NCBI GenBank assembly: GCA_001784475.1
Contig: MFRE01000022.1
Location: forward strand, 44,234-108,233
DNA length: 64,000 nucleotides
From: Candidatus Magasanikbacteria bacterium RIFOXYD2_FULL_41_14
Lineage (GTDB): Bacteria; Patescibacteriota; Patescibacteriia; Magasanikbacterales; GWA2-37-8
Direction: 5' to 3'
The notes beneath the pieces were generated by a model. It did not search any database and was not told the origin of the DNA. It saw only the letters and a list, made by a program, of their open reading frames with translations. The position numbers and the translations under genes are program-made. Below are positions 2,431 through 61,014 of this stretch, piece after piece (positions within the stretch are counted from its first letter, which is position 1; the number at the start of each line of letters is the position of its first letter).

Positions 2431-2446
2431 TATATCAATTTTGAAA

Positions 2447-2866
2447 TCATTGTTTAAGGGTAGTAGAAACAGTGGCAGTTGCGGTTGTTGGCGTAGAAGA
2501 CGCGCTGGTGGGTGTGTTGGCAGTAGCTGAATTTTTTAGTAATTGAATTATTATTGCTATTTTTTCTTTTACTAATTCTTTTTTGGTGTCGTGATTTTTA
2601 GTCAATTTGAAAGCTTCTTCCCAGCTTTGTTGACCTTGGGTAAAAAGTTGTTTTTCTTTAGATTGGCCAAAATTAAGAATGGAAATTTGATTGTAAATGG
2701 AATAGCCCCAGAGAGTGGCGATAATTGTCCCCACCGCTATCACTAGAAACCAAAGCCAATTAGAAATCGCTTGTTTGGGAGTAGCTAGTTGACGCAAACG
2801 TGCCAAGTCCTCGGTTTTATCTTCGGTCGCCAGCATCTTTTTTTTATTTTTTTTAACAGATGCCAT
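2447..2866 (-). CDS. small membrane protein (one TM helix, Thr/Ala-rich C-terminal tail), unknown function
   Basis: 139-aa ORF in tight tandem with gyrA. Hydrophobic segment WLWFLVIAVGTIIATLWGYSIY. Confidence 0.45.
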   Translation of the reverse strand: MASVKKNKKKMLATEDKTEDLARLRQLATPKQAISNWLWFLVIAVGTIIATLWGYSIYNQISILNFGQSKEKQLFTQGQQSWEEAFKLTKNHDTKKELVKEKIAIIIQLLKNSATANTPTSASSTPTTATATVSTTLKQ

Positions 2867-2877
2867 ATTTGGCTATG

Positions 2878-3492
2878 TCAGTAATTTTTTTCTAAAATAT
2901 ATAATTTTCTGTCGTCTTGCGGTAGGTCTTTCTTTTTTATAATAATTTTTTTATCAGTTATTTCCGGTTTAATCCCCAACTCTTTTACAAAATTCTCAAC
3001 CGGCAATACGTTTTTATCAGTGTCGCAATGATAGGCGATCGGGATGACAATTCGGGGTTCTAATTCGTTGACAGTTTCAGCGGCTTTGTCTGGGTCAAGA
3101 TAAACATTTTTACCACCGACTGGCAATAATAAAATATCAATGTTGCCGAGTTTGTCAATTAAGGAGGTGTCTATTTTAGTTTTAGTTGTTCCCAAATGGA
3201 CAATAGACAACCCTTCGGCGTTAAGTTTGAAAATTATGCCGTCAGCATGTGGGTAGGCGTAAATCATCACTCCTTTAACTTCGCACTCTCCCAAGGTGTC
3301 TAGTACGAAAGGGTTTTGCATCAAGGTTATCGTCCCGTTTGGGCCATGGGAAAATAGGGCGATATTGGCTGCCAAATTTTTGGGGAAATCGCCTTGTTCA
3401 GGACGGTAGGGGTTTATCAGGATTACCACATCTTCGTCCAAGTTTTTGGTTTGGAGTTTGACACAGGTGTTGCCGAGCCAGGAAATATGCAT
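2878..3492 (-). CDS. metallo-beta-lactamase-fold hydrolase
   Basis: 204 aa, general MBL-fold architecture with His/Asp-rich patches (SHGP, YPHAD). No exact motif was verified. Confidence 0.55.
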   Translation of the reverse strand: MHISWLGNTCVKLQTKNLDEDVVILINPYRPEQGDFPKNLAANIALFSHGPNGTITLMQNPFVLDTLGECEVKGVMIYAYPHADGIIFKLNAEGLSIVHLGTTKTKIDTSLIDKLGNIDILLLPVGGKNVYLDPDKAAETVNELEPRIVIPIAYHCDTDKNVLPVENFVKELGIKPEITDKKIIIKKKDLPQDDRKLYILEKNY

Positions 3493-5848: not shown

Positions 5849-6343
5849 ATGAAAAATAAAAAATTGGATTTAGTTATAGGCGTGTTATTTGTGGTAGCGC
5901 TTGCGTTTGGGGTGTCGGCGCAAGGGGCTGATACCGGCACGGTATCAGCGACAGTAACAGTTCAAAATGTTTCATTAACTGTTTCCGATGGCACTGTTGC
6001 TTATGGCACACAATCAGCCGGTGCTATGACGAGCACGTTACTTACCGGAGATATCCAGACAGTTACTAACAATGGTAATATAACAGAAAATTTTAACATC
6101 AAAGGCCAAGATTCCGCCAACTGGACACTGGCTTCATCTAGTAGCACCGACCAGTATACCCACCAATTTTCCACTACGACTGGTTCCTCTTGGACTTCTC
6201 TAACTACCAGCTATGCCACTTTGGACACAAGCAAAGCGGCTGCCGCCACTTCTACTTTTGATTTGCGCATTTATGTGCCTTCCGCTTCCACCAACTATAC
6301 TTCTCAGAGTGTTGATGTTACCGTACAGGCGGTAGCCAGTTAA
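5849..6343 (+). CDS. small secreted protein (signal peptide), paralogous to the C-terminal module of the 3592-5751 protein
   Basis: ATG at 5849 gives MKNKKLDLVIGVLFVVALAFGVSAQG (signal peptide). The mature part aligns with the last ~130 aa of the upstream protein (TVTNDGN...NWTLxS...DQY.H....DVT.QAV). The listed ORF 5564..6343 is an upstream extension through the intergenic region. Confidence 0.55.
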   Translation: MKNKKLDLVIGVLFVVALAFGVSAQGADTGTVSATVTVQNVSLTVSDGTVAYGTQSAGAMTSTLLTGDIQTVTNNGNITENFNIKGQDSANWTLASSSSTDQYTHQFSTTTGSSWTSLTTSYATLDTSKAAAATSTFDLRIYVPSASTNYTSQSVDVTVQAVAS

Positions 6344-6353
6344 TAACTTTTTT

Positions 6354-6950
6354 ATGCGTAAAATCATAGTAATGGTTGGATTGATAAGTTTAGCTTTGAC
6401 TATACCACTTTTTGTTTCGGCGCGGGTGGGTGTGGGTGTTGGCGCTGGTAAAATTCAAATGACTGAACAATTAAAACCGGGCAAAACTTACGAATTGCCG
6501 GTTTTGCCGATTTTAAATACCGGTGATGAATTTTCCGCGTATGAAGCTACCGTGGAATATCATGAAAATATTCCCCAAATGTGGCCGAAGCGCGAGTGGT
6601 TTAAATTTACTCCTCAAACTTTTGAATTAGAACCGGGGCAGGTAAAAAATGTAAAAGTGGAATTGAGTTTGCCGGTAAACGCCAAGCCGGGAGAATACCG
6701 TGCTTATTTAGAAGGTCATCCGGTTAAAAAAAGTCGCGCTACCGGCGGGGCGGCGGTGGGTGTGGCTGCGGCGGCTGATTTGCGTTTTACGGTGGTGCCG
6801 GCCAATATATTGGCTGCTTGGTATTATAAAATAACAACTTTTTACAGTCGCTATCATCCTTACGATACGATCGGGTTGGCTTTGCTCGCGTCCGCTTATC
6901 TATTTTATTGGGTGAAAAAGAATTTTAAGTTTCAGATCGCGAAAAAGTGA
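6354..6950 (+). CDS. secreted protein with signal peptide and C-terminal TM anchor, unknown function
   Basis: 198 aa. N-terminal MRKIIVMVGLISLALTIPLFVSA, C-terminal hydrophobic helix plus a basic tail. Confidence 0.5.
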   Translation: MRKIIVMVGLISLALTIPLFVSARVGVGVGAGKIQMTEQLKPGKTYELPVLPILNTGDEFSAYEATVEYHENIPQMWPKREWFKFTPQTFELEPGQVKNVKVELSLPVNAKPGEYRAYLEGHPVKKSRATGGAAVGVAAAADLRFTVVPANILAAWYYKITTFYSRYHPYDTIGLALLASAYLFYWVKKNFKFQIAKK

Positions 6951-7016
6951 CATCCAACTCGCGCCGGATGTTATCCTGAGGAGTCATAGTGACGAAGGAT
7001 TTATTATCTTCTGTAC

Positions 7017-8087
7017 ATGAAAAGATTTTTGGTTCAATTCATTTTGTTTGTTTCACCCCTACTGGTTATATCATTAGGGGCTTTTTTTTCTTATCCTCAT
7101 CTGGTTTCGGCCGTGTCCACGGCGACGGTAGTCGCAACCATTAAAATAGAAGTTTGTGGTGATGGTGTAAAAGATGATAGTGAAGAGTGCGATGGCAGTG
7201 ATTTGAACGGCCAAACCTGTACCAATTTTAGTGGGTTCACGGGTGGAACATTATCCTGCTCGGCCGGATGTTTGTTTGCTATCACTGCTTGTACCAGTGG
7301 CGGAACTTCTCCCGGTGGTGGGGGCGGAGGAGGGGGCGGTGGCGGTATTCCACCAACGGAACCGGTAATTACGAGCGCGGTGTTTGTCGGTCGCGCTTAT
7401 CCGGGCAGTTTGGTAACACTTTTAAAAGATGGCCAAATAGCCATACGCACCGTGGCCGGACCGGACGCTAATTTTCAAATGACTTTGGCCGGACTATCTG
7501 CTGGCAATTATATTTTTTCTTTGTACACGACGGATAATATTGGTCGGCAATCATCGGCTTTGACTTTTCCGGTTTTTGTTACTAGTGGCGCGACTACCCG
7601 TGTTTCTGGAATTTTTTTAGCGCCGACCATTGCGGCTGATAAAAGTGAAGTAAAACGCGGAGACACTTTGTCTATTTTTGGCCAGTCTTTACCGCAAAGC
7701 GAAATTACGGTACAAGTGAATTCCACGCAAGAATTTTTTGCTAAAGCCAGAGCCGACAAAGACGGTGTGTATTTATATAATTTAGATACGGCATTTTTGG
7801 AAATCGGCGATCATAGCGCGCGTTCCAAATCCACGGTCGCGAACGAAATTAGCGCTTATAGCGATCGGATTGCTTTTAAAGTCGGGACAAAATCAGTGAA
7901 TGAAGCGGTGGATACAACTTATAAAAAAGCGGACTTAAACCGCGATGGTAGTATTAATTTGGTGGATTTTTCCGTGGCCGCATATTGGTATAAACGGAAG
8001 TCGCCGCCGGCGAAATATGATTTAAATAACGATGGCAAAATTGATTTGGTGGATTTTAGTATCATGGCCTACTACTGGACAGGATGA
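7017..8087 (+). CDS. secreted Cys-rich protein with G11 linker and C-terminal dockerin-type repeats
   Basis: Signal peptide. Cys-rich CGDGVKDDSEECDGSDLNGQTC segment. Poly-Gly run. Two Ca-binding-loop repeats, DLNRDGSINLVDFSVAAYWY and DLNNDGKIDLVDFSIMAYYW, typical of type I dockerin. Confidence 0.6.
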   Translation: MKRFLVQFILFVSPLLVISLGAFFSYPHLVSAVSTATVVATIKIEVCGDGVKDDSEECDGSDLNGQTCTNFSGFTGGTLSCSAGCLFAITACTSGGTSPGGGGGGGGGGGIPPTEPVITSAVFVGRAYPGSLVTLLKDGQIAIRTVAGPDANFQMTLAGLSAGNYIFSLYTTDNIGRQSSALTFPVFVTSGATTRVSGIFLAPTIAADKSEVKRGDTLSIFGQSLPQSEITVQVNSTQEFFAKARADKDGVYLYNLDTAFLEIGDHSARSKSTVANEISAYSDRIAFKVGTKSVNEAVDTTYKKADLNRDGSINLVDFSVAAYWYKRKSPPAKYDLNNDGKIDLVDFSIMAYYWTG

Positions 8088-23437: not shown

Positions 23438-24709
23438 TTACTGATTATTTTTTTTGAAAATTTCCTCAAAATTTCCAATTGATTTTAAAAATCTTTCCGG
23501 ATGGGCTTTAACTTTTTTTGATAGTTCTTTTCTTTTAAACCATTTAATCGCCGCTACTTCACTTTTTTGAATTTTAAATTGTGAGATCGGTTTATCTATC
23601 GTTGCGAAAAATCTTTGGGAAAAGAAATTGTGTTTGCCGGTATAGCGGATTTTTTCTCCTTTTATTATTTTAACATTTTTTAGTCCAATTTCTTCTTCGG
23701 TTTCTTTGATGATGTTGGATTCGTATGTTTCGCCTTGGTCGTTGGTCCCAGCGACTGCCACACCCCATTTACCAGGGTCGTGACTTTTATTAAACGCTCT
23801 CTGGGCAAGCAAAATATTACCTTTTGAGTTTTGAACCCACAAGGCGGACACGCGATAAATATCTTTTTGTTTTACATCTTCTCGTTTTTTGTGTCCGATA
23901 ATTTTGTCATTTTTATCAACAATAATTATTTTTGGTTTTATGGTTTTTTTATATTCTTCTAGAAATAATTGTAAAGTTTTTTTCAGATTATTTTTTTCTA
24001 TTTTACTTAAATTTAAAACTTTTTTTGTTTGACGTAGGAGTATCGCTTTTTTAACGTATTGGATCCCCAAAAAATTAGGGCAACATTTTGCTAAAGCGCC
24101 AGGGATATTCTTTTTTTTAACGGTTACCCCCTTACTGAGTAAGAGACAATTACTCATGTTAATAATATAATTTATCCATTTTCGCGGTTCTCTATTAAAT
24201 ATATTCCATCCTGGATTTGCGCTGGTTGCGTGTTCGTATTCAAATTGCAGTTCGTTTGTTAGGTCTCGTTGTATTATTTTTTTGACTTCTGGTATTAGTT
24301 TAATAACATTTTTTCCATACAATATTCGTGATTGTTTTTTTAATTTTATTAATCCCAAATTTCCAATGAATCTCGTCGCTTGATTATTATTTTTTATCCT
24401 GTTGTTAAAATCTGCGTCAAGCGTAGTATAGCACTGAATATCAATTGAATATTTTTTTGATAATTTGTCGATTTCTGTTTCAGAAATATTAACAGCACTT
24501 CTAACCAAAGCCATGACATCGTAATCGCTGTAGCCGTCAATAAAGTCATAATTGCCGTAGCTACCAACCGCTAATAAGGAAACTAAATTTTTACCAAGTT
24601 TTTTTCTTAGTAATTTTACAAGCGCTCGTTCCATTTGTTTTAGTTGGGAGCGGTGTGTGTCCATATTTGTAATACACAATGTATCGTTAATTTCTAAGTA
24701 TGAGCCCAT
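23438..24709 (-). CDS. fusion protein: N-terminal minimal nucleotidyltransferase (KNTase-like) plus C-terminal Nudix hydrolase
   Basis: GSYGNYDFIDGYSDYDV (GS...hDhD NTase motif). C-terminal Nudix box GTNDQGETYESNIIKETEEEIGL. The region before the Nudix box resembles IDI-type Nudix. Very AT-rich. Confidence 0.6.
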   Translation of the reverse strand: MGSYLEINDTLCITNMDTHRSQLKQMERALVKLLRKKLGKNLVSLLAVGSYGNYDFIDGYSDYDVMALVRSAVNISETEIDKLSKKYSIDIQCYTTLDADFNNRIKNNNQATRFIGNLGLIKLKKQSRILYGKNVIKLIPEVKKIIQRDLTNELQFEYEHATSANPGWNIFNREPRKWINYIINMSNCLLLSKGVTVKKKNIPGALAKCCPNFLGIQYVKKAILLRQTKKVLNLSKIEKNNLKKTLQLFLEEYKKTIKPKIIIVDKNDKIIGHKKREDVKQKDIYRVSALWVQNSKGNILLAQRAFNKSHDPGKWGVAVAGTNDQGETYESNIIKETEEEIGLKNVKIIKGEKIRYTGKHNFFSQRFFATIDKPISQFKIQKSEVAAIKWFKRKELSKKVKAHPERFLKSIGNFEEIFKKNNQ

Positions 24710-25953
24710 AGTAATTTAAAAAAATTATAAATTGGATGTGAAAAAAATTTATTAAAATTCTTTTTAAGTGTTTTAGAATCTTCGTGGGTTTCGCGTTTGG
24801 CCAATTTAAAGGCGTATTTTTTATTAATTTGCGCCCAAGCGACCGACATCTCGTCGCTTTTAGCAGGTTTTTTGACTTGTATTTTATCGCACTGCCTAAA
24901 TAGATTGTGATTTACGGACAGCCACAGTGAAATTATTCTTACCCCTAAAAAGTTTTCTGGCTCAGCATTTATTAAAGACGGGATTAATAATTTTGGAAAA
25001 ATTAAATCCAAGTCATCTAAATTCCCAAGCACAAAGGCCATATTCCAAGTAATGTACAGACTTGCCCAGTTTTGGCTTGTGTTAACAGTTGGGAATAGGT
25101 TATTTTTTTCAGAGATCGATTGGTAAAAAATATCATCGTTCTTTGTCGGAATAACATTTTTGTTTTTAAACATGGCTAAGGGAGGGTCACACCTTAGATC
25201 TTCGGATAGTGCATAAGCAGAAATCGAATTAGTTTTAAAGTCGTTGTGATATTCGGTAATACCAGCTTCGTAAATATTTATACGCACTAATTCATTTATA
25301 TGTTCTATGTTATTTTTTAAAATTGGTGACAGTAGCTTGTATTCTAAGTAATTTATTTTTTTATCACGTAGCATTTTTTTGGCTTCTCCGATTGTTAAAT
25401 GTGAACCCGCCAGACCACGTCTTATGCGGAAGTAAATCATCAGCGGGTCCAGCGAGAAAGCCTTGGCGATTTTGAAAAAGTCTCTTGAAATTTTTAGCGC
25501 GCGCATAAGAGCATTTAACGAATGGGTAGTGTCAATTCCGCATGCCCTCTCCTTAATTTTGTAATGGTCTTGTACTTCAACAAAGAAGTCGTGGCTATTA
25601 CACATGGTGGCGGTCAAAGCTTCCAGAACGAACATGACGTGCACTGATCGGGCAATATGCTCGAATGGCCGAAACCAATTATTTTTAAGCGCCAAGTCCG
25701 CGAATTCAACTATGGCCGGATGTTTTGATGCCACGCCTTTTTTTATATTATTAAACATTGGTTGCAAATCTTGCGGTTCAGAAATAATATCCTGAAAAAA
25801 TTTGCGCATGCGCTCGTTTTTTGTTTTTAAGTCGTTGAGTTTTAGTTCTGCGATAACCCCCTTCATTATTTGGGGGTTGGTTGTTATATTTTTCTCCAAA
25901 CCAAAAGCTACCATGGTTTTGTCAAAAATTTCGCTCGCTTCTTTTAGTGGCAT
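24694..25953 (-). CDS. hypothetical 419-aa protein, overlaps the downstream NTase-Nudix gene by 16 nt
   Basis: No recognisable motif. Very AT-rich. Co-oriented with the next gene, suggesting translational coupling. Confidence 0.4.
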   Translation of the reverse strand: MPLKEASEIFDKTMVAFGLEKNITTNPQIMKGVIAELKLNDLKTKNERMRKFFQDIISEPQDLQPMFNNIKKGVASKHPAIVEFADLALKNNWFRPFEHIARSVHVMFVLEALTATMCNSHDFFVEVQDHYKIKERACGIDTTHSLNALMRALKISRDFFKIAKAFSLDPLMIYFRIRRGLAGSHLTIGEAKKMLRDKKINYLEYKLLSPILKNNIEHINELVRINIYEAGITEYHNDFKTNSISAYALSEDLRCDPPLAMFKNKNVIPTKNDDIFYQSISEKNNLFPTVNTSQNWASLYITWNMAFVLGNLDDLDLIFPKLLIPSLINAEPENFLGVRIISLWLSVNHNLFRQCDKIQVKKPAKSDEMSVAWAQINKKYAFKLAKRETHEDSKTLKKNFNKFFSHPIYNFFKLLWAHT

Positions 25954-39124: not shown

Positions 39125-41548
39125 ATGAATGCTCATAATTACAAAAAAGATTTTGGCGGTAAAACGGTTTTAATTCTTAGTTCCGGCACAGAACGCAACC
39201 GCTTTGTTTTTAATGTTGTCAATCGTTTGGGTTTAAAAACAGTTGTGCTGAACGACCGTGTTAATTGGAGTAAGCGTTTAGCAGATGATTTTATTCTGGC
39301 AGATAATTTTAATCACGCGCAAGTTTTAAATGTCCTGCGTTCTTATTTTTTAAAACACAAAGTGGCCGGTGTTGTTACTTTTTCCGAAGAAAATGTTGAA
39401 CTTCTAACTAAAGTTTGTCATGAATTTAATTTTATTGGCAACGGTCGCACTACTGCCGGTTACTTGCGTAATAAATACGCGATGCGGCAACGGTTCGCGG
39501 CTTGGCAGATTGACCAGCCAAACTTCGCGCTGGTTACGAACGATAGTGAATTGCAGATTGCCATTGCCAAGGTTGGCTTTCCAGCGATTATAAAACCGGT
39601 GGCTGGCACTGGCGGCGATTTTGTAGTTAAGGTTACTGATAAACATAATGCTCAAGAAATTTTTGATTTTATTAAAAAAAATGCCACTCCTAAATTTGAT
39701 CCCATATTTTTTCAAAATCAATATCAATTTTTGTACGAAAAATATTTACCGGGGGCCGAGGTTAGCGTGGAGGCGGTAACTCAAAACGGTCAAACTGATG
39801 TGGTAGCGATTGTGGATAAGCAGACCGGAGATGAGCCTTATTTTGTGGATTATAAACACAGTTTGCCTTCAAAATTAGATAGCGAAGAGCAAGAGATGGT
39901 AGAACGGCTAGTGTTTGCGGCGCATCGCGCTTTGGGGATTATGAACGGGATAACTCATACGGAGATTATAATGAGAAAAGACCGGCCGGCAATAATTGAG
40001 GTGGCCGGACAGATGGGCAGTCAATATATTTGGGATGGGGTGCGTACTACCTGGGGAGTTGATTTGGTGGAGCAGGCGTTTCGGGTTGCTTTGGGGCTGC
40101 CTATTACTACTCATCAACGGGCTTTGGAGCCAAAAAAATACTGGGCTTGTCAATATTTAGAAATTGAAAAATCAGGGATTGTGGCGGCCATTCACGGTGC
40201 CGATGAGGTGGCCAAGATAAAAGGCGTAAGAGATTTGTATTTAGACAAAGAAGTTGGTGACGCGGTTTTAGTTCCGCCCTTAAGTTTTGACACGATTGGT
40301 TGGCTAGCGGCAGAAGGGGAGAGCCATTCGGAGGTGGATGATGTGGTGAGCGCAGGAGTGGATAAATTAGAAATCCAAACCATTTCTTTTGATGCTGAAT
40401 CATCTGTTGGCCAAAGTGAACGTCGGAATAATTTTTCATCGGCGTTTGTAATGAAGAAAAAATATCTGGCGCAGGCACGGGTGGAAAAATTGCGCCGTTT
40501 GGATATTAAAAATTTGCGCGGGTTGCACGTGGGTATTTTAGGCAATGTTTATAAAAATAATTCTAAAACCACGGAAAAAAATGAAATCGCCGGCGAACTT
40601 ATGTCGGTTGGCTACGGCGTTCAGAAAGTTTTGCAAGAGCGTGGTTACCGAGTGAGCTTTTTTGATATGAATGAAAGCCCTTTGCCTTTGGAAAAAATCC
40701 AAAAATCAGGTGTGGATATTATTTTTAATGTTTGTGAGCGTATTAATGATTCTAGCTTGCTTGAACCACACGCTGCGGCGGTTTTGGATATTTTACAGGT
40801 GCCTTATACCGGTTCCAACCCCTTAACTTTGGCTTTTTGTATTGATAAAATTAAAGTAAAAAAATTATTGTCTTATCATAATATTCCTACTGCCAAATTT
40901 GATGTGGCCTACACCATGGACGATAAAATTGACAGTGAGTTACGCTATCCGCTGATTGTTAAACCGGCTAACACTGACAATAGTATTGGTATTACCAATA
41001 AATCAGTTGTTAAAAATATAAAAGAATTAAACACGCAACTTCACGAGGTGATAGTGAAAGCCGGTCGGCCGGCGCTGGTGGAAGAATATATTGAAGGCGA
41101 CGAGTTTGATGTCTCTATTATTGGTAATGAGCAAGGTTTGGAAGTTTTACCATTATCGCGTTCTATTTTTGATAAAATGCCGAAAGGTTATTGGCATATT
41201 TATCCGTTTGAATCAAAGTTTGGTGATGTTCCCGCTTATGATCAAATTAAATTGCAACGGCCAGCGAAGGTGGTCACTAAATTATCTAAATTAATCACTG
41301 AAATTGCGATTGATACTTATAATATTCTAGGGGCGCATGATTACGCGCGGGTGGAGATGCGGATAGATAAAGATCACAATCCATATGTGATTGAGTTAAA
41401 CCCTAATCCGTCTATTGGCGCTGATACTTGCACTGCAAAATGTGCGGCTTTGGCTGGTTATGATTATGGTGATTTTTTGGAGTTGATTTTAAGTTCAGCC
41501 ATTAAACGTTATCAAAATAGGCCACCTTTTTCTCATTTGAGCAATTAA
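39125..41548 (+). CDS. tandem ATP-grasp ligase fusion; C-terminal half is D-Ala-D-Ala-ligase-like
   Basis: 807 aa. First half FPAIIKPVAGTGGDFVVKV... is ATP-grasp. Second half resembles the Ddl N-terminal domain (HVGILG...) plus ATP-grasp (PLIVKPAN...YARVEMRIDKDHNPYVIELNPNPSIG). Confidence 0.6.
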   Translation: MNAHNYKKDFGGKTVLILSSGTERNRFVFNVVNRLGLKTVVLNDRVNWSKRLADDFILADNFNHAQVLNVLRSYFLKHKVAGVVTFSEENVELLTKVCHEFNFIGNGRTTAGYLRNKYAMRQRFAAWQIDQPNFALVTNDSELQIAIAKVGFPAIIKPVAGTGGDFVVKVTDKHNAQEIFDFIKKNATPKFDPIFFQNQYQFLYEKYLPGAEVSVEAVTQNGQTDVVAIVDKQTGDEPYFVDYKHSLPSKLDSEEQEMVERLVFAAHRALGIMNGITHTEIIMRKDRPAIIEVAGQMGSQYIWDGVRTTWGVDLVEQAFRVALGLPITTHQRALEPKKYWACQYLEIEKSGIVAAIHGADEVAKIKGVRDLYLDKEVGDAVLVPPLSFDTIGWLAAEGESHSEVDDVVSAGVDKLEIQTISFDAESSVGQSERRNNFSSAFVMKKKYLAQARVEKLRRLDIKNLRGLHVGILGNVYKNNSKTTEKNEIAGELMSVGYGVQKVLQERGYRVSFFDMNESPLPLEKIQKSGVDIIFNVCERINDSSLLEPHAAAVLDILQVPYTGSNPLTLAFCIDKIKVKKLLSYHNIPTAKFDVAYTMDDKIDSELRYPLIVKPANTDNSIGITNKSVVKNIKELNTQLHEVIVKAGRPALVEEYIEGDEFDVSIIGNEQGLEVLPLSRSIFDKMPKGYWHIYPFESKFGDVPAYDQIKLQRPAKVVTKLSKLITEIAIDTYNILGAHDYARVEMRIDKDHNPYVIELNPNPSIGADTCTAKCAALAGYDYGDFLELILSSAIKRYQNRPPFSHLSN

Positions 41549-54838: not shown

Positions 54839-55540
54839 TTAAGTTAATAATTGTTTAAGAAGTGTTATAGCCTCGCTATTCATTATACCAATTTTTTCGT
54901 TTCCGTTCAAATGGTGGACAACGGTGCCACGGTCGGCGAAGAATTTTTGATACTCTGGGGATAGAAAGATGCCCGACTCTTTTTTCAAATTTTCTAATTG
55001 CTCATAGAAGCTATTGTCATTTTTTCCGCTCCGTCCTTGTAGTCGTTTGACACTTTCTAATGGGTCGGTATTGACTATAACCAAGTGATCGGGGCGAAAT
55101 TCAAGCGCCAGTTTGTTGCCGGACAAAATCGCATTTTCTTCAAATGGCACGGCGTTATCAATTGATTGATAGCAGATGGAGCTGGATACGCCCCGATCTT
55201 GAATTATAACGCGGTTGTCACGGAGTAGGGGGATTATCATTTTGGTATAAAGGACGAGTCGGTCCAAAGAATAGGCCTCGGCCAACGCGCGAATTGGATA
55301 GTTGGTTCCTTTTTTTATCAGTTCATCACGGATAACTTTGCCAATGCCGGCAAAGGTTGGTTCAGCGGAAAAAATAAAATCATACTTGCTTGGTTCGGAT
55401 AATTCTGGGAATTGCCCGGTATCTTTAATATACTTTTTTAAATCAAAAATCGCGTTGCCTTGGTCAGACAAATATTTTTTCCAGCTCTCAATGATTGTGC
55501 CTTTGCCAGAGCCATCAATGCCGTCTACCATTATTAACAT
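54839..55540 (-). CDS. tmk: thymidylate kinase
   Basis: P-loop VDGIDGSGKGT, DRGVSSSICYQ (DRY-like), LID region. Confidence 0.85.
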   Translation of the reverse strand: MLIMVDGIDGSGKGTIIESWKKYLSDQGNAIFDLKKYIKDTGQFPELSEPSKYDFIFSAEPTFAGIGKVIRDELIKKGTNYPIRALAEAYSLDRLVLYTKMIIPLLRDNRVIIQDRGVSSSICYQSIDNAVPFEENAILSGNKLALEFRPDHLVIVNTDPLESVKRLQGRSGKNDNSFYEQLENLKKESGIFLSPEYQKFFADRGTVVHHLNGNEKIGIMNSEAITLLKQLLT

Positions 55541-55607
55541 ATTTAAATTGCAGATTTATGATTTTAGATTCTTGATATGTAATTAGTTATTTTTCTGAAT
55601 TATTAAT

Positions 55608-56078
55608 TTATTTCTTATAAATTACAAAATCAAAGCCATCGTGTGATTCGCGCCAGGTTTCTTTCCAGATGTTCTTATTAATTTCAGGGAAAAATGTGTC
55701 GCCCTCTGGTGACATGTGCACGAGAGTGATATAAAGCGTGTTCACGCGGTCAATGGTTTGGCGGTAGATGCTTGCGCCTCCGCAAATAAACACATCTTCG
55801 TCTTTTAATTTATTAAAAATATCGTCTAGCGATGTAAATTGACGCACGTTCTCAGGTAAACTAGGTACTAATTCACGAGTTATCACAACAGTTTTTCTGC
55901 CTGGTAGCGGTTTGCCAATATAACTGACAATTGATTCGTAAGTTATCAAACCCATAACGCAAGTTTTACCCAAAGTCGTATTTTTAAAATAGGCAAAATC
56001 TTCGGGAATATTCCAAGGAATTTTATTATTCTTGCCAATACAATTGTTGTCGGCCACGGCGGCGATGAGGGAAAACAT
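55608..56078 (-). CDS. folA: dihydrofolate reductase
   Basis: MFSLIAAVADNNCIGKNNKIPW is the canonical DHFR N-terminus. The listed ORF extends 12 codons upstream into an inverted repeat. Confidence 0.85.
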   Translation of the reverse strand: MFSLIAAVADNNCIGKNNKIPWNIPEDFAYFKNTTLGKTCVMGLITYESIVSYIGKPLPGRKTVVITRELVPSLPENVRQFTSLDDIFNKLKDEDVFICGGASIYRQTIDRVNTLYITLVHMSPEGDTFFPEINKNIWKETWRESHDGFDFVIYKK

Positions 56079-56137
56079 AATGATAATTTCAAAATCCAAA
56101 TTTCCAATTTCCAATCAATGTCAAAGCTCAAATTTTC

Positions 56138-56254
56138 GTTGTCATCCCGACCGTAGTGGAGGGATCCCTTAACGCCATCATTTTACGTATTAACTAATTT
56201 AAGGGATTCTTCCCCGACGCAAGGTCGGGATAAACTGTTACACTCAGAATGACA
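56138..56254. repeat. MITE-like element (GTCATCCCGACCGTAGTGGAGGGATCCCTT...AAGGGATTCTTCCCCGACGCAAGGTCGGGAT...AATGACA), itself flanked by a 22-bp inverted repeat
   Basis: Flanking IR: TCCAATTTCCAATCAATGTCAAA (56101-23) and TTTGACATTGATTGGAAATTGGA (56287-309). Confidence 0.55.
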
Positions 56255-56345
56255 ATTTGTTATTTGATCTTTGAAATTTGGGTTTGATTTGACATTGATT
56301 GGAAATTGGAAATTTTACATTAATAATATTTATTTTAATTGAGTT

Positions 56346-57218
56346 CTACACTGCTATTGGAAATGAAATTTTTGGATGGCTCTGGTAATTCATCAATTCC
56401 GTATCCGCATATTGCCAATCAAAAATATTGGTGAACTTATCGGTTTTAATTTGAGGTAGGTGATATGTGTTCGGGTCACGGGCTAATTGTTCGCGTGCGC
56501 CTTCCATATGGTTGGAATAAATATGCACGTCCGCCAAAAATCCCACTAGTTTGCCTTCTTTTAGGCCAGTTTCTTTGGCAAGCAGATGCAACAAAGTTGC
56601 ATATGAAGCAATGTTAAATGGCAGTCCAAGCATCGTGTCAACCGAGCGTTGGTTCCAGAGTAAATTCAGTCGGCCTTTAATTACTGTCACCTGAAAACAA
56701 TAGTGGCAAGGTGGTAAAGCCATTTCCGAGATTTTGGATGGGTTCCAGGCCGAAACAATCATTCGACGGTCAGTGGGATTGGATTTAATTTTCTCCACTA
56801 GGTTGTTAAATTGATCAATACCTTGGCCGGAATAGTCGGTGTCGTAAGAAATATAGTCAGCATTGAAATGTCGCCATTGAAAACCATAAATTGGTCCGAG
56901 GTCGCGTTCTTCGGCCATTTTTTGTTTAGTTTCTTCATCATGGGCATAAGGAACTTTTTTTGGATTACACCACTCGTCCCAAATATGGCAATTTCGTTCT
57001 TTTAGCCATTCTTTGTCGGTAAGCCCTTTGATAAAAAATTCTAATTCGGAAGTTATAACTTTAAATGGCATTTTTTTGGTAGTCAAAAGCGGAAAGCCGG
57101 CTGCCATGTCATGTTCAAACATTGCGCCAGCAATTGCCAAAGTGCCGGTACCAGTGCGATCATCTTTTTGTTCGCCTTTTTCCAAAATTGTTTTGACGAT
57201 GTTTAGGTATGATTGCAT
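56346..57218 (-). CDS. thyA: thymidylate synthase (ThyA type)
   Basis: MQSYLNIVKTILEKGEQKDDRTGTGT..., catalytic ALPPCHYCFQ. The listed ORF, extended to 57299, runs through the upstream repeat element. Confidence 0.9.
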   Translation of the reverse strand: MQSYLNIVKTILEKGEQKDDRTGTGTLAIAGAMFEHDMAAGFPLLTTKKMPFKVITSELEFFIKGLTDKEWLKERNCHIWDEWCNPKKVPYAHDEETKQKMAEERDLGPIYGFQWRHFNADYISYDTDYSGQGIDQFNNLVEKIKSNPTDRRMIVSAWNPSKISEMALPPCHYCFQVTVIKGRLNLLWNQRSVDTMLGLPFNIASYATLLHLLAKETGLKEGKLVGFLADVHIYSNHMEGAREQLARDPNTYHLPQIKTDKFTNIFDWQYADTELMNYQSHPKISFPIAV

Positions 57219-57235
57219 ATATTTATTTTGTTTAC

Positions 57236-57313
57236 TGTCATTTCGGACTAGATCCGAAATCCAGTCGTTGTTTTTATTGACCGCTGGATCCCCGATCAAG
57301 TCGGGGATGACAG
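57236..57313. repeat. MITE-like element (GTCATTTCGGACTAGATCCGAAATCCAG...CTGGATCCCCGATCAAGTCGGGGATGAC)
   Basis: Lies between the dut stop and the thyA start. Confidence 0.6.
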
Positions 57314-57329
57314 TTGAATCTTGCGATGT

Positions 57330-57752
57330 TTATTTTCCTGTACTTCCGAAACTTCCTAGCCCGCGGGATGCTTCTGATAATTCCCCAACCTCTTGAAGTT
57401 TGGCGATAGCCACAGGATAAATTATCAATTGCGCGATTTTATGGCCGGTTTCAATTTTATATGGTTCTTGGCCTAAATTTATCAGTTGTACATTGTATTC
57501 ACCGCGATAGCCAGCGTCAAATACTCCGCCCATTGTATGAATGCCGCCGTTTTTTGGTAAAGAACTTTTATCTTTCACAATCGCCGCGTAGCCGGTTTCA
57601 AACTCCAGCGCAAAACCAATAAAAAAAATTTTTCGTTCGCCTGGTTGTAAATTGTAGTCCTCAAGCGAATACAAATCCATGCCCACATCACCTGGGTAGG
57701 CGTAGGTGGGTAATATTGCGTCTGGTTTTAAGCGTTTAATTTTAACTTGCAT
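57330..57752 (-). CDS. dut: dUTP diphosphatase
   Basis: 140 aa, conserved dUTPase motifs (GYAAIVKDKSS..., GGVFDAGYRGE, RGLGSFGSTG). Confidence 0.9.
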   Translation of the reverse strand: MQVKIKRLKPDAILPTYAYPGDVGMDLYSLEDYNLQPGERKIFFIGFALEFETGYAAIVKDKSSLPKNGGIHTMGGVFDAGYRGEYNVQLINLGQEPYKIETGHKIAQLIIYPVAIAKLQEVGELSEASRGLGSFGSTGK

Positions 57753-58296
57753 ATTTTTTGACCAGCGCGTCCAACTGGGCGTGTAGATTTTCCATTGAGC
57801 CGTTATTATCGATGTGTTCGGTCGCGTGTTTTACTACGTCTAATATGCTCAATTCCGTAGAACGTTTATGGTCCTCTAAAAATTGTTCGTAAGTTTTGGT
57901 GTTGTCGTCTGAATTTTCACCACGTTTTGTCAGTCGTTCGTAACGAGTTTTTGGTTCGGCAAAAATTTCTATTAAGACAAAATTTGGTAATTGTGATAAA
58001 TATTCAATATCAGCCATTCGACGGATTCCTTCCACCACCACTAAATTATTGGTAGCGGCTTGCGCGTCGCCGGCAATGGCTTTGGCCAAGGTATTTTCAC
58101 CAAAAGTTGTGCGGATACATTCCGACATTTTAATCAAAAAATCACGCGATTGTTCCAGATAAATGCGATTTAGCAGGTCGCGCAAAATTGTGGAATAGCG
58201 GAAAGTATCGGCTTGATATTTTGTTTCTAAATATTTTGCCACCGTGCCCTTACCGCTTGATAGTAATCCGGTAAATCCTAAAATTATTTTATTCAT
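57742..58296 (-). CDS. P-loop nucleoside/nucleotide kinase (putative dNMP kinase)
   Basis: 184 aa, P-loop GLLSSGKGTV. Embedded in the dNTP-metabolism cluster. Confidence 0.5.
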   Translation of the reverse strand: MNKIILGFTGLLSSGKGTVAKYLETKYQADTFRYSTILRDLLNRIYLEQSRDFLIKMSECIRTTFGENTLAKAIAGDAQAATNNLVVVEGIRRMADIEYLSQLPNFVLIEIFAEPKTRYERLTKRGENSDDNTKTYEQFLEDHKRSTELSILDVVKHATEHIDNNGSMENLHAQLDALVKKYAS

Positions 58297-58302
58297 AAAT
58301 TT

Positions 58303-58773
58303 TTATTTAGCCCAATCCGACACATACTGTCGGCATTTAATTCCGGCGGCGTCAAACAACCGGCGGGCGGCGGTAAACGCATCCACCCCGTGGTATTTAT
58401 CGCTTTCAAAGATCACTTCAGTAATGCCGTTTTGAATGATGGTTTTAGCGCATTCGTTGCAAGGATAGAGACAAGAATATACCCGCCCGCCTTTGACCGA
58501 CATGTTGGCGTTATAAATCGCATTTTCTTCCGCGTGGCACATGTAGGCATATTTGGTCTCTAAAAATCCACCTTCGCGTTCCCAAGGGAGCTGGTCGGCT
58601 TCAATTCCGCGCGGAAATCCATTGTAGCCCATGCCAAGTACAACATTGTTCGTGTCAACAACCACAGCACCCACTTGTGAAGAAGGGTCTTTGGAGCGTT
58701 CGGCAATCACATGCGCCATGCGCATAAAACATTCATCCCAAGAAATAGTATTTTCACGAGGAGAAATAGTCAT
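58303..58773 (-). CDS. dCMP deaminase (CMP/dCMP-type zinc deaminase)
   Basis: HAEENAI...PCNECAKTII zinc-binding motifs. Confidence 0.85.
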   Translation of the reverse strand: MTISPRENTISWDECFMRMAHVIAERSKDPSSQVGAVVVDTNNVVLGMGYNGFPRGIEADQLPWEREGGFLETKYAYMCHAEENAIYNANMSVKGGRVYSCLYPCNECAKTIIQNGITEVIFESDKYHGVDAFTAARRLFDAAGIKCRQYVSDWAK

Positions 58774-58802: not shown

Positions 58803-58838
58803 TATCAAAAAACCGCCATTGGGGCAAGGGGCGGTTTT
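58803..58838. terminator. bidirectional hairpin terminator (AAAACCGCC...GGCGGTTTT)
   Basis: Read directly. T-tract on the minus strand follows the 58858-59940 gene. Confidence 0.5.
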
Positions 58839-58857: not shown

Positions 58858-59940
58858 TTATAGTGATACTTTTATCAAGCCGTTATTAGCATTTAGTTTT
58901 ATTGTCACCCCATTTTTTATTTTGCTTTTTTCAATTTCTGGGCAAATAATGTAAGGTTTTTTTAGTTCACGAGCGATAATTGACATATGCGAAAGACAGT
59001 TGCCATTTTTGGTGATAACACCGGCTGCTTTTCTTAGGAAAGGCAAATGTTTTAATGTCATGAGTGGGCATACTAATATGTCATTTTTGTTAATTGAATC
59101 TTTGCTGGGATCTTTGATGGTTCTTTTTTTTCCGATTGCGACTCCTGGGCTGGCGCTAGTTCCACTAAGATAAATTGATTTTTCTTTTGGGATTTGTGTG
59201 TAAGTAAAAACTTTTTTTATTTCTCTATCGTAATCATTTAAAATAAATTTGTTATTGGTATAAATTCTGAATTCAAAGTATCCCTCAATATATTTTTTTT
59301 GATTAAATTTAATGTGCGATTTTTTTAGAAGATTTCTTTTTGAAATACTATTCGCCTGGAGACGTTGTGCGATTCTCATCACCCGTTTTTTTTCTATCAG
59401 TGGGATGTTTTGAGAAAAATACCATTTTTTAAAGTTGTAAATAAAATATGTCGGTTTATGATTTTGCGTTCCATAAATTAGTTGCCACAAATCGCCGCTG
59501 ATTATTTCCCCAACTATTTGGTTCTTTGTTATTACGATAATGCCGGAATAAGCAATTTTATGATAGGGGAATATATGTAGCGGGCCGTAGTTTTTGGATG
59601 TTATATTTTGTTTTTTAATCCAAAGCAAAGCTTCTTTAACTGTTTTTTGTCTAGCGCGTTTTTTGTAAAAGTTTTTTTTGTTTGGAAGTATTCGCCAGTC
59701 AAATATTTTTGTTTTCTTTATCTTCTCTAATATTTTTGGATTGTTTATAAAAGTCTCCAGTTCTATTTTAAGGCAGTGTTTACACTCAAACCCTAAAATT
59801 TTTGACAGTTTTTCCAGTCGAATTTCTTTAGTGCGATCTTCATACTCAATCGACTTGGCCCGTTTACTGCCAATAATTTTAAATAATTCTGTTAAAGGCG
59901 GTATTGACTCTCTGAGAATTTTTTCAGGCGTTAATTTCAT
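58858..59940 (-). CDS. protein with C-terminal PEP-utilizing-enzyme mobile (swivel His) domain; N-terminal ~250 aa unknown
   Basis: C-terminal GTSASPGVAIG...NGNCLSHMSIIARELKKPYIICPE matches the PEP-utilizers motif. Extremely Lys/AT-rich. The start overlaps the upstream gene stop (ATGA). Confidence 0.55.
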   Translation of the reverse strand: MKLTPEKILRESIPPLTELFKIIGSKRAKSIEYEDRTKEIRLEKLSKILGFECKHCLKIELETFINNPKILEKIKKTKIFDWRILPNKKNFYKKRARQKTVKEALLWIKKQNITSKNYGPLHIFPYHKIAYSGIIVITKNQIVGEIISGDLWQLIYGTQNHKPTYFIYNFKKWYFSQNIPLIEKKRVMRIAQRLQANSISKRNLLKKSHIKFNQKKYIEGYFEFRIYTNNKFILNDYDREIKKVFTYTQIPKEKSIYLSGTSASPGVAIGKKRTIKDPSKDSINKNDILVCPLMTLKHLPFLRKAAGVITKNGNCLSHMSIIARELKKPYIICPEIEKSKIKNGVTIKLNANNGLIKVSL

Positions 59941-60965
59941 ATTTTATGCAAAATTGTCATGTGTTTCTCTGTTTCTTTGATTATTTTTCTGGCGTTGGCT
60001 ATTGTATAGGCAGGGCGTCTGCCGAAAGCTGTTTCGTGGCATAGCATTATGCCGTCAACACCAGCCATTACCATGTTAGTCAAGTCGGATATTTCTGATC
60101 GATTAGGTATATATGAATTTATCGTACTGTCTAATATTTGAGTAGAGATTATTATTTTTTTTTGTTTTTTCTTGATCAAGCTAATTATATTTTTTTGTAG
60201 TATTCCCATTTGTTCAAATGGTACACTGACACCGACATCGCCTCTTTCCCACAATATCATAGAGTAATTATTATCATCACAGATGGTATCTAATTCTTCC
60301 GAAGTAATTTTTTTGGTAATCTTGATAATTATTTTTATGTGTTCTTTGTTCGGAATCATTGCTTTTAGCGCTTCATTAATTTTGAGGTTAAAAAATGGAA
60401 TCGCGATGTAGTTTGGGCGTGTATCTAAGGCCAAAGGAACAGTTTTTTGGTAAAAATTCAAAATATGTTTTTCATCCAGATATTGAAAGCCAAAGATATT
60501 AAATGGTTTTTTGAAAAAAATCGTTCCCGTATTTAATATTTTAGCTTTCACTGTGTCTTGGTCGATAATGTTAATTATTTGTATGGCTATTTCTCCATCG
60601 CCAATAGTTATTGTCTGATTAAGTTTAACAATTTCTCCCAGCCTGGCCACATTAACAGGGACGAACTCATTGCAATCCATTGTGTGGCTTGCTGATTTAA
60701 ACAAAAATTCTTCATTTTCTTGGACGGCGAACGACTTTGTTTCAAAATCTCCCAAACGCGGTTTTAACGCGGGAAGATCAATTAAAATTTTAGTATCGGC
60801 ATTAAGGCTATAAATTATCTCTTGGCTGTTTTTAATATTGGTTCTATTTTCTTCTAATGTTCGATAAGCAAAATTATACCTAAGAACATCAGCTCCGGCG
60901 AGAATTATTTTTTTTATTTTATCTTCAGATAGCGAGTTGACCCCGAGTGAGGCAATTATAAGCAT
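59937..60965 (-). CDS. pyruvate-kinase-like TIM-barrel domain protein (no C-terminal PK domain)
   Basis: ILAGADVLRYNFAY, MILWERGDVGVSVPFEQ and ISTQILDSTINSYIPNRSEISDLTNMVMAGVDGIMLCHETAFGRRP align with the PK A-domain motifs. Confidence 0.6.
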   Translation of the reverse strand: MLIIASLGVNSLSEDKIKKIILAGADVLRYNFAYRTLEENRTNIKNSQEIIYSLNADTKILIDLPALKPRLGDFETKSFAVQENEEFLFKSASHTMDCNEFVPVNVARLGEIVKLNQTITIGDGEIAIQIINIIDQDTVKAKILNTGTIFFKKPFNIFGFQYLDEKHILNFYQKTVPLALDTRPNYIAIPFFNLKINEALKAMIPNKEHIKIIIKITKKITSEELDTICDDNNYSMILWERGDVGVSVPFEQMGILQKNIISLIKKKQKKIIISTQILDSTINSYIPNRSEISDLTNMVMAGVDGIMLCHETAFGRRPAYTIANARKIIKETEKHMTILHKI

Positions 60966-61014
60966 GCTGTTATGCTTAAAACACCCCTGTAAGAAGGGGT
61001 GTTAAGTTTATTAA

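Follow-up and report, generated by a model that had tools for sequence, protein, structure and literature searches.

Two overlapping genes in a DNA-precursor operon

The window analysed in this study is a stretch of 64,000 nt (contig MFRE01000022.1, positions 44,234 to 108,233 of the forward strand) from Candidatus Magasanikbacteria bacterium RIFOXYD2_FULL_41_14, which belongs to the Patescibacteria or candidate phyla radiation (CPR). Two genes on its minus strand are the subject of this work. Gene A encodes a protein of 342 aa, which is the core of a pyruvate kinase (PK) lacking the allosteric domain, and gene B encodes a protein of 360 aa, in which a compact ATP-grasp-like domain (here called BN) is followed by a swivel phosphohistidine domain. 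The reading of the open reading frames (ORFs) confirmed the coordinates and the 4-nt overlap given for the two genes in a preliminary description, which had been made from the sequence alone (Table 1). The conservation of this pair within an operon for DNA precursors suggests an undescribed nucleotide phosphorylation driven by phosphoenolpyruvate (PEP).

In the window and in the identical contigs, the gene order was rplA, A, B, dCMP deaminase, P-loop (AAA_17/18) kinase, dUTPase, thyA, folA, and tmk. The GC content was 0.336 for A and 0.315 for B, compared with a window mean of 0.405 (sd 0.032, 1-kb windows), and the GC content at third codon positions (GC3) was 0.32 and 0.30, respectively. Both measures were approximately 0.08-0.10 below those of the neighboring genes, while lysine made up 9.4% of the residues of A and 15.8% of those of B, so that the AT and lysine richness remarked on at the outset was borne out. 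Since terminator-like hairpins, both of them weakly supported, flank the pair on either side, A and B look bicistronic. The 64-kb window contained no additional PK, no PPDK or PEP synthase, no ndk, and no PPDK_N-like ORF. The PADLOC defence models gave no relevant match, and a reading of the pair as a defence system was dropped.

Gene A is a pyruvate kinase core without the allosteric domain

Gene A matched the Pfam PK family PF00224 over profile positions 6-327 of 328 (E 1.3e-47, 163 bits, cut-off 30), and its residues 3-337 were aligned by phmmer to residues 8-344 of PKs in the PDB (E 2e-29). The AlphaFold2 (AF2) model, with a pLDDT of 95.6 and a pTM of 0.92, consisted of a TIM barrel with an all-beta lid inserted at approximately residues 69-157. 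The top Foldseek matches were all PKs, and the best TM-score (0.89) was obtained with the Leishmania mexicana PK bound to ATP and oxalate (3hqo). In Pfam, the C-terminal alpha/beta allosteric domain of PK (PF02887) had no match in either A or B. Against the full-length family TIGR01064, A reached 186.5 bits, which is below the cut-off of 306.4, and covered positions 5-339 of 476. A is the A domain of PK together with its lid (the B domain in PK nomenclature), and the allosteric C domain is absent. The preliminary description had seen the A-domain barrel only and thus missed the lid, the C-terminal domain being the sole missing part, but it was right that this is not a normal glycolytic PK.

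The active site of A was mapped by motif onto the rabbit-muscle PK numbering. A retains R29 (rabbit R72), N31 (N74), D63 (D112), R70 (R119), K215 (K269), D243 (D295), T275 (T327), and E311 (E363). The residues that handle PEP and the phosphoryl group, namely R29, D63, K68, R70, K215, T275, and E311, are kept, and all of these except K68 were noted as conserved across the A family. Of the K+, Mg, and PEP motifs that had been recognized initially, the PEP site stood; the other two needed correction. For monovalent cations, A has a site of the K+-independent type (L64, K68, L71), in which Lys68 occupies the position of rabbit Glu117, and the Mg-ligand Glu271 of the KIE motif is replaced by Thr217 in KIT. 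The second protein ligand of Mg, Asp295 of the RGD motif, is kept as Asp243.

At position 217 the family consensus is E, with the variants G, T, D, and A. Within the clade of C-less PKs from Magasanikbacteria (loci L001-L037; 60237-60317 in the window), position 217 is E, G, T, D, or A and position 243 is E, N, K, or D, while position 240, an Ala in the canonical ARGDLG, invariably holds an acidic residue. The canonical KxE...ARGDLG is retained in more distant C-less relatives. These substitutions suggest that the metal site was remodelled in the Magasanikbacteria clade. One such distant relative, in locus L026 of a distant Patescibacteria genome, lies at 6001-7029 and has the canonical Mg ligands; a canonical three-domain PEP synthase (824 aa, 590-3064) is encoded 3 kb upstream of it.

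In the lid of A, two nucleotide-contact motifs, GDGE and K153, are conserved. In the PK of Streptococcus pneumoniae, the nucleotide is contacted by an Asp and a Lys of the lid and a Thr of the barrel (bioRxiv 10.1101/2024.06.25.600556), which correspond to D123, K/R153, and T275 of A. These three residues (D123, K153, T275) were conserved alike in the PKs of lineages with and without B, and the catalytic residues of A did not differ between the two kinds of lineage either. A therefore appears to be a PK core that is competent in catalysis and binds nucleotides, its metal site being remodelled.

Gene B joins a compact ATP-grasp-like domain to a swivel histidine domain

The swivel domain that had been predicted at the C-terminus of B was recovered as PEP-utilizers (PF00391) at residues 284-354, with an E-value of 1.7e-12 and 47.2 bits (cut-off 23.1); chance explains neither this match nor that of A to PF00224. 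When the B family profile was compared with the PDB sequences, PEP synthase (8a8e, E 1e-33) and the PEPut domain of Geobacillus PK (2e28, E 2e-19) were found; swivel domains were the sole matches, and nothing was obtained for BN. His318, the counterpart of the PEP synthase catalytic His in the alignment, was invariant in 95/95 family sequences and in all three genomic-context groups; conservation of the swivel His was one of the checks proposed with the preliminary description. Since the swivel motif of B is LSH, with Leu316 invariant in the same 95 sequences, B lacks the regulatory Thr found in TSH. B stops 6 residues past the swivel domain, and the PEP-utilizers_C TIM barrel (PF02896) was not found in it by Pfam; the adjoining barrel belongs to the PK family.

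A word-indexed search with B alone returned one close relative and swivel-only matches. The family was recovered after relatives beside PK genes in related loci were used as a profile, and this search yielded 148 clusters of proteins of approximately 360 aa, which carry database names such as "hypothetical," "PEP-utilizing enzyme," and "pyruvate water dikinase." B is approximately 39% identical to its nearest homologue beyond near-identical genomes. BN is rare: when 1.84 billion representative proteins were scanned in full with HMMER, 99 hits were obtained.

The first 250 residues of B had no match in Pfam, NCBIfam, or the PDB sequences, and PPDK_N (PF01326) had no sequence match in B. The early judgement that this region is unassignable consequently holds for sequence families, while the structure gives an ATP-grasp. 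The AF2 model, built on the alignment of the 95 family sequences, comprised two domains with a pLDDT of 92.4 and a pTM of 0.89. In Foldseek, it was colinear over 351 columns with PPDK 1kbl (E 1e-9) and was also colinear with PEP synthase 2ols. The nearest folds of BN were the nucleotide domains of RPH, HpeI, and PPDK, and BN is approximately 90 aa shorter than PPDK_N. A profile-profile comparison of BN with PPDK_N, run twice, gave no signal, and therefore homology at the sequence level is not claimed. When B was compared with PPDK entries, the TM-score (TMq) was 0.41-0.44 for those of Clostridium symbiosum (1kbl, 1dik, among others) and 0.25-0.26 for the maize and Flaveria conformers. Since it was higher for the Clostridium symbiosum entries, in which the His domain sits docked against the nucleotide domain, the model suggests that His318 is docked on BN.

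Across the 95 sequences, D35, K38, R95, R97, W107, G144, G157, G220, Y221, E223, and D236 were invariant in BN, as were G313, L316, H318, R324, E325, and P329 in the swivel domain. The BN invariants were identical in PK-linked, PPDK_N-linked, and stand-alone members. In the AF2 model, E223 and D236-x-N238-R239 lie on the last two strands of BN, with the spacing of ATP-grasp Mg-ligand pairs, although a residue-by-residue equivalence is tentative; canonical PPDK_N proteins carry DxEW...QxRP at the place matching E223 and D236. As modelled, B is a miniature of the N-terminal two-thirds of PPDK or PEP synthase. It is a conserved and almost certainly catalytic protein that combines an ATP-grasp with a phosphohistidine.

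The pair is conserved in Magasanikbacteria

Loci with a C-less PK were retrieved, giving 29 at the species level. The PK directly followed rplA in 25 of the 29 loci, a dCMP-deaminase gene lay downstream in 23, and the order rplA-PK-[B]-dCMP deaminase-kinase-dUTPase-thyA-folA-tmk was conserved across Magasanikbacteria. B directly followed the PK in 14 of the 27 informative loci, so that the pair sought in related genomes was indeed found. The spacing between PK and B ranged from -11 to +21 nt in most loci, and the -4 overlap of the window recurred in loci L012, L024, and L035. Behind the single PK of L012 and of L024 there are two tandem B paralogues, and in the B family the PK-linked proteins fall into separate deep groups, among them two paralogue types. 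This conserved adjacency, together with one natural PK-B fusion (P0265 in Table 1), supports the functional link between A and B that had been supposed.

In loci without B, the slot between the PK and the dCMP deaminase was empty, or held a CYTH gene with a deoxyribosyltransferase-like gene (L004, 7004-7938; L007, 7022-7969), or a NUDIX gene (L022, 2937-3497). It appears to be a variable slot for nucleotide accessory genes. Nudix-box enrichment beside B genes was not over background (4/49 loci).

The genes for PK and B had a GC content under that of their neighbors in most relatives as well. Consequently, the AT and lysine richness is regarded as a family trait and not as a mark of recent acquisition, and the earlier view of the pair as acquired was given up, given also the position of the PK between rplA and the dCMP-deaminase/dUTPase/thyA cluster.

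The wider B family and its fusions

A metagenome scan added 32 loci with full B-type genes. Outside Magasanikbacteria, the gene directly upstream of B was often a stand-alone PPDK_N ATP-grasp of approximately 265 aa (L032, L038, L047, L054-L057), and in some other metagenome loci it was a long PPDK_N-X-swivel protein. In four loci from other Patescibacteria (L046, L071, L059, and L040), B closes tandem arrays of 2-4 different genes, each with an N-domain of no assigned kind and a swivel His, some of them headed by PPDK_N; these look like multi-substrate two-component dikinase arrays.

Fusions of B-type modules are listed in Table 1 together with the features of the window. Since a mere 490 nt separate rplA and B in the operon of P0173, it contains no PK. 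P0258 joins an ITPase-like NTPase_I-T domain, an S-adenosylmethionine (SAM) methyltransferase, and a B-type module, and its start is overlapped by 4 nt by a NUDIX gene; a tRNA-intron endonuclease, an XPG/FEN1-like gene, and TYW2 lie in its neighborhood.

Table 1. Features of the A/B locus in window coordinates, and fusion proteins containing B-type modules
Feature	Position	Strand	Basis or context
Gene A, PK without C domain, TIM barrel and lid	59937..60965	-	Pfam, phmmer, AF2
Lid (PK B domain), approximately aa 69-157 of A, insert in the barrel	60495..60761	-	AF2 all-beta segment; alignment to solved PK B domains
Codon of Thr217 of A (KIE to KIT), position of the canonical Mg-ligand Glu	60315..60317	-	Alignment to 6qxl
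ATGA, overlap of A stop and B start	59937..59940	-	Direct sequence reading
Gene B, two-domain phosphohistidine protein, 360 aa	58858..59940	-	AF2, Foldseek, family of 148 clusters
BN domain, aa 1-250 of B, compact, ATP-grasp-like	59191..59940	-	Fold; no Pfam, NCBIfam, or PDB sequence match
Swivel phosphohistidine domain, approximately aa 259-360 of B	58861..59166	-	PF00391; family profile against PDB
Codon of His318 of B (LSH motif), presumed phospho-carrier	58987..58989	-	Invariance; alignment to PEP synthase His
Terminator-like hairpin between rplA and A	60984..60998	-	Consensus scan and sequence reading; weak
Terminator-like hairpin past B	58813..58827	-	Consensus scan; weak
Downstream dNTP genes: dCMP deaminase, P-loop kinase (AAA_17/18), dUTPase, thyA, folA, tmk	54839..58773	-	Pfam labels; identical contigs
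P0265, PK-BN-swivel, single 729-aa ORF			rplA to dCMP-deaminase context as in the window; one contig
P0280, P0285, P0269, P0249, P0306, PPDK_N-BN-swivel fusions
P0173, B-dCMP deaminase fusion			4 contigs; operon with 490 nt between rplA and B
P0258, NTPase_I-T-methyltransferase-BN-swivel	L117 4456-7211		Archaeal-looking neighborhood

Comparison with known systems

A close parallel is offered by PPDK and PEP synthase. B is colinear with their ATP-grasp and His domains and has the catalytic His, and A completes the set of three kinds of station. The barrel is different, however, being of the PK family with a lid and encoded as a separate upstream polypeptide instead of a PEP-utilizers_C domain. 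In addition, BN lacks detectable sequence similarity to PPDK_N and is shorter, and the motif is LSH, not TSH. The PykA proteins of Bacillus and Geobacillus (2e28; PMC9009071) likewise combine a PK catalytic core with a PEP-utilizer swivel domain that has the conserved SH. They are full-length PKs including the C domain, with PEPut fused directly and no ATP-grasp, whereas in A/B the C domain is absent and the swivel domain brings its own ATP-grasp, normally on a separate protein.

VadK (Rv1127c) of Mycobacterium tuberculosis (PMC13400623) resembles B, as modelled, in having a domain for ATP binding and a His domain for phospho-transfer but no PEP/pyruvate barrel. It is a truncated bona fide PPDK of approximately 490 aa, while BN is a far more compact ATP-grasp unrelated to it in sequence, and the partner of B in the window is a PK in a deoxynucleoside triphosphate (dNTP) operon. 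The PPDK_N found next to B in other lineages recalls two-component dikinases such as HpeHI (PMC12167813). The window pair differs from HpeHI and from rifampin phosphotransferase, RPH (PMC12167813, PMC4844700), in that a PK barrel, not PPDK_N, is encoded upstream, and in that the "substrate" domain of B has an ATP-grasp-like fold of its own. The PKs of Mollicutes and Streptococcus pneumoniae act as kinases of nucleoside and deoxynucleoside diphosphates (NDP/dNDP) (PMC3091866; bioRxiv 10.1101/2024.06.25.600556), and A, with its nucleotide-contact residues kept and its place in a dNTP operon, is similar to them. Those enzymes are full-length, allosteric, and encoded with glycolysis genes, whereas A has lost the C domain and its metal ligands are remodelled. 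No paper that we found describes the coupling of a PK barrel to an ATP-grasp/swivel protein.

A possible phosphohistidine relay built on a pyruvate kinase barrel

The reading that we tentatively favor, while holding it to be somewhat short of probable, is a PPDK-like three-station phosphohistidine relay in which the PEP station is a PK barrel and which serves nucleotide phosphorylation. A and B would form a two-protein relay in the manner of PPDK or PEP synthase, with the PK barrel as the PEP/pyruvate station and BN as the compact ATP-grasp nucleotide site, and the swivelling His318 would shuttle the phosphoryl group between PK-bound PEP and BN-bound nucleotide. The likeliest direction would be from PEP via His318 to the nucleotide, supplying the adjoining dNTP-synthesis operon; the reverse direction, as in PEP synthase, would also be possible. 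Three points are inferred: that the swivel domain touches the active site of the PK, what BN binds, and which way the phosphoryl group moves.

The PK barrel and the PEP-binding barrel of PPDK and EI belong to the same PEP/pyruvate-domain superfamily. In the characterized enzymes known to us that join an ATP-grasp to this swivel domain, namely PPDK, PEP synthase, RPH, and HpeHI, the His moves phosphate between two sites set apart in space (PMC4844700, PMC12167813). The relay is supported by the colinearity of B with the first two domains of PPDK and by the PEP/phosphoryl residues kept in A, as well as by the tight spacing of PK and B and the PK-BN-swivel fusion P0265 in a matching operon context. 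The PPDK_N-BN-swivel architecture of other lineages parallels PK-BN-swivel. Because PPDK_N lies upstream of B or is fused to it in other Patescibacteria, B is seen to stand habitually beside a phosphoryl-handling module. The two B paralogues behind one PK may, by analogy, resemble a single donor for several carrier modules.

Several observations weigh against this relay. To our knowledge, no PK has been shown to phosphorylate histidine. The PK had no adjacent B in 13 of the 27 informative loci, B-type genes stand alone in some loci, and in the four contigs of P0173 a B fused to dCMP deaminase occurs in a dNTP operon without PK. Since each gene occurs alone, neither A nor B is an obligate subunit of the other. 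With its lid and nucleotide-contact residues kept, A looks like a self-sufficient NDP-dependent kinase, the lid may block docking of the swivel domain, and a Mg-ligand Glu is replaced by Thr in A. The fused PEPut domain of Bacillus PykA, moreover, has been described as regulatory (PMC9009071). Given that each gene occurs without the other and that the PK keeps its nucleotide-site residues, transfer from the PK site to His318 stays an inference, and the two-component phosphotransferase of the preliminary description is unproven.

The same observations can be read as those of two separate enzymes of one dNTP pathway, without a direct relay. A would then be an autonomous PEP-dependent (d)NDP kinase in place of nucleoside diphosphate kinase (NDK), and B a self-contained phosphohistidine phosphotransferase for nucleotides. 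Using ATP in the ATP-grasp site that it carries, B would charge His318 and hand the phosphoryl group on to a different nucleotide, by an NDK-like ping-pong or as a dikinase, so that co-translation would serve just stoichiometry or ATP/ADP channelling. We regard this as possible but doubtful. It fits the occurrence of A and B without each other in the dNTP operon, the fusion of B to nucleotide enzymes (dCMP deaminase in P0173, NTPase_I-T and methyltransferase in P0258), the CYTH with Ndt-like gene or the NUDIX gene that otherwise fills the slot after the PK, the nucleotide-site residues retained by A, and the BN invariants, which are unchanged whatever gene adjoins. PKs also phosphorylate all NDPs and dNDPs and have been proposed as NDK substitutes in Mollicutes (PMC3091866; bioRxiv 10.1101/2024.06.25.600556). 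Left unexplained, however, are the placement of B directly behind PK or PPDK_N with stop/start overlap and the PK-B fusion. Nor do we know of a characterized single-site enzyme composed of ATP-grasp and swivel domains. Alternatively, B might be a regulatory or sensor subunit that autophosphorylates according to the adenylate state, binds the barrel, and replaces the allosteric domain that A lacks. Such a role has precedents in the PEPut domain and TSH motif of Bacillus subtilis PykA, which modulate catalytic activity up to 16-fold (PMC9009071), and in VadK, which has an ATP-binding domain and a His without a barrel, autophosphorylates on His, interacts with metabolic enzymes, and tunes flux (PMC13400623). 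B is also facultative, being present in about half of the lineages, and the catalytic residues of A are alike with and without it. Yet B is coupled, with identical invariants, to PPDK_N, to dCMP deaminase, or to nothing elsewhere, and since the family has these other partners or none, B is not a dedicated PK regulator. The regulatory Thr of TSH is an invariant Leu in B, and two B paralogues behind one PK would be odd for a regulator, so that we consider this role unlikely.

The remaining explanations are far less plausible. A recently acquired foreign cassette or a pair of decaying genes would account for the depressed GC and GC3, the low identity of B to its nearest homologue, and the replaced Mg-ligand Glu in A, but the synteny is clade-wide, the GC depression recurs in relatives, the ORFs are intact, the models are very confident, and the functional residues are invariant; we rate it as highly improbable. 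Recent horizontal acquisition in particular is essentially excluded by the synteny and the family-wide low GC. Least probable of all is a split housekeeping PK of the Bacillus type, with the barrel in A and the C domain and PEPut in B, which had been named as the case that would overturn the preliminary description. Although Bacillus and Geobacillus PKs bear a C-terminal PEPut and the B swivel domain matches 2e28, the PK structures among the fold matches of B (2e28 and 3t05 only) align via PEPut alone, over approximately 107 columns, and PF02887 gave no match. The ATP-grasp fold modelled for the N-terminal 250 aa of B rules out a PK C domain hidden there, and with it a Bacillus-type PK split into A and B.

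Other features of the window

The thyA ORF at 56346-57299 (-) begins with TTG and encodes 317 aa. Its relatives have 290 aa and begin with MQSYLNIV, so that translation probably starts 27 codons further downstream. Another island of low GC, with 1-kb values of 0.31-0.35, lies at 23438-25953 (-). It encodes two proteins, one of 423 aa that ends in a NUDIX domain (aa 287-407) and one of 419 aa without a Pfam match. At 39125-41548 (+), an 807-aa protein contains two modules of the ATP-grasp kind, ATP-grasp_4 and D-Ala-D-Ala-ligase C-terminus, and may be a double ligase.

Implications

What is new here is an ATP-grasp-like domain family, BN, with an unprecedented barrel partner, within the known family of PEP-utilizer/dikinase phosphorelays. 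Whatever the mechanism, BN is a newly defined domain family, and its definition corrects the labels "PEP synthase" and "pyruvate water dikinase" on proteins of 360 aa. A broader claim, that A is the first PK-family enzyme to use a phosphohistidine relay and that the B-type cassette is a general nucleotide-phosphorylating module with interchangeable donors (PEP via PK, ATP via PPDK_N), is one that we consider rather speculative and doubtful. If it were true, the cassette of mini ATP-grasp and His would span ultra-small bacteria and archaea, and reduced genomes would make (d)NTP from (d)NMP or (d)NDP by a route driven by PEP, in place of the canonical nucleoside diphosphate kinase.

If the relay exists, a PPDK-like machine would have been built from a different barrel, a result that would matter as well for what PEPut does in Bacillus-type PKs. 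PK has been detected in approximately a third of CPR genomes (PMC7304191). The central and nucleotide metabolism of these organisms is minimal and patchy, and their dNTP synthesis and energy conservation are largely inferred from annotation. Against this background, a coupled and occasionally fused pair of a PK barrel and an ATP-grasp/His protein points to an unannotated step of nucleotide phosphorylation from PEP.

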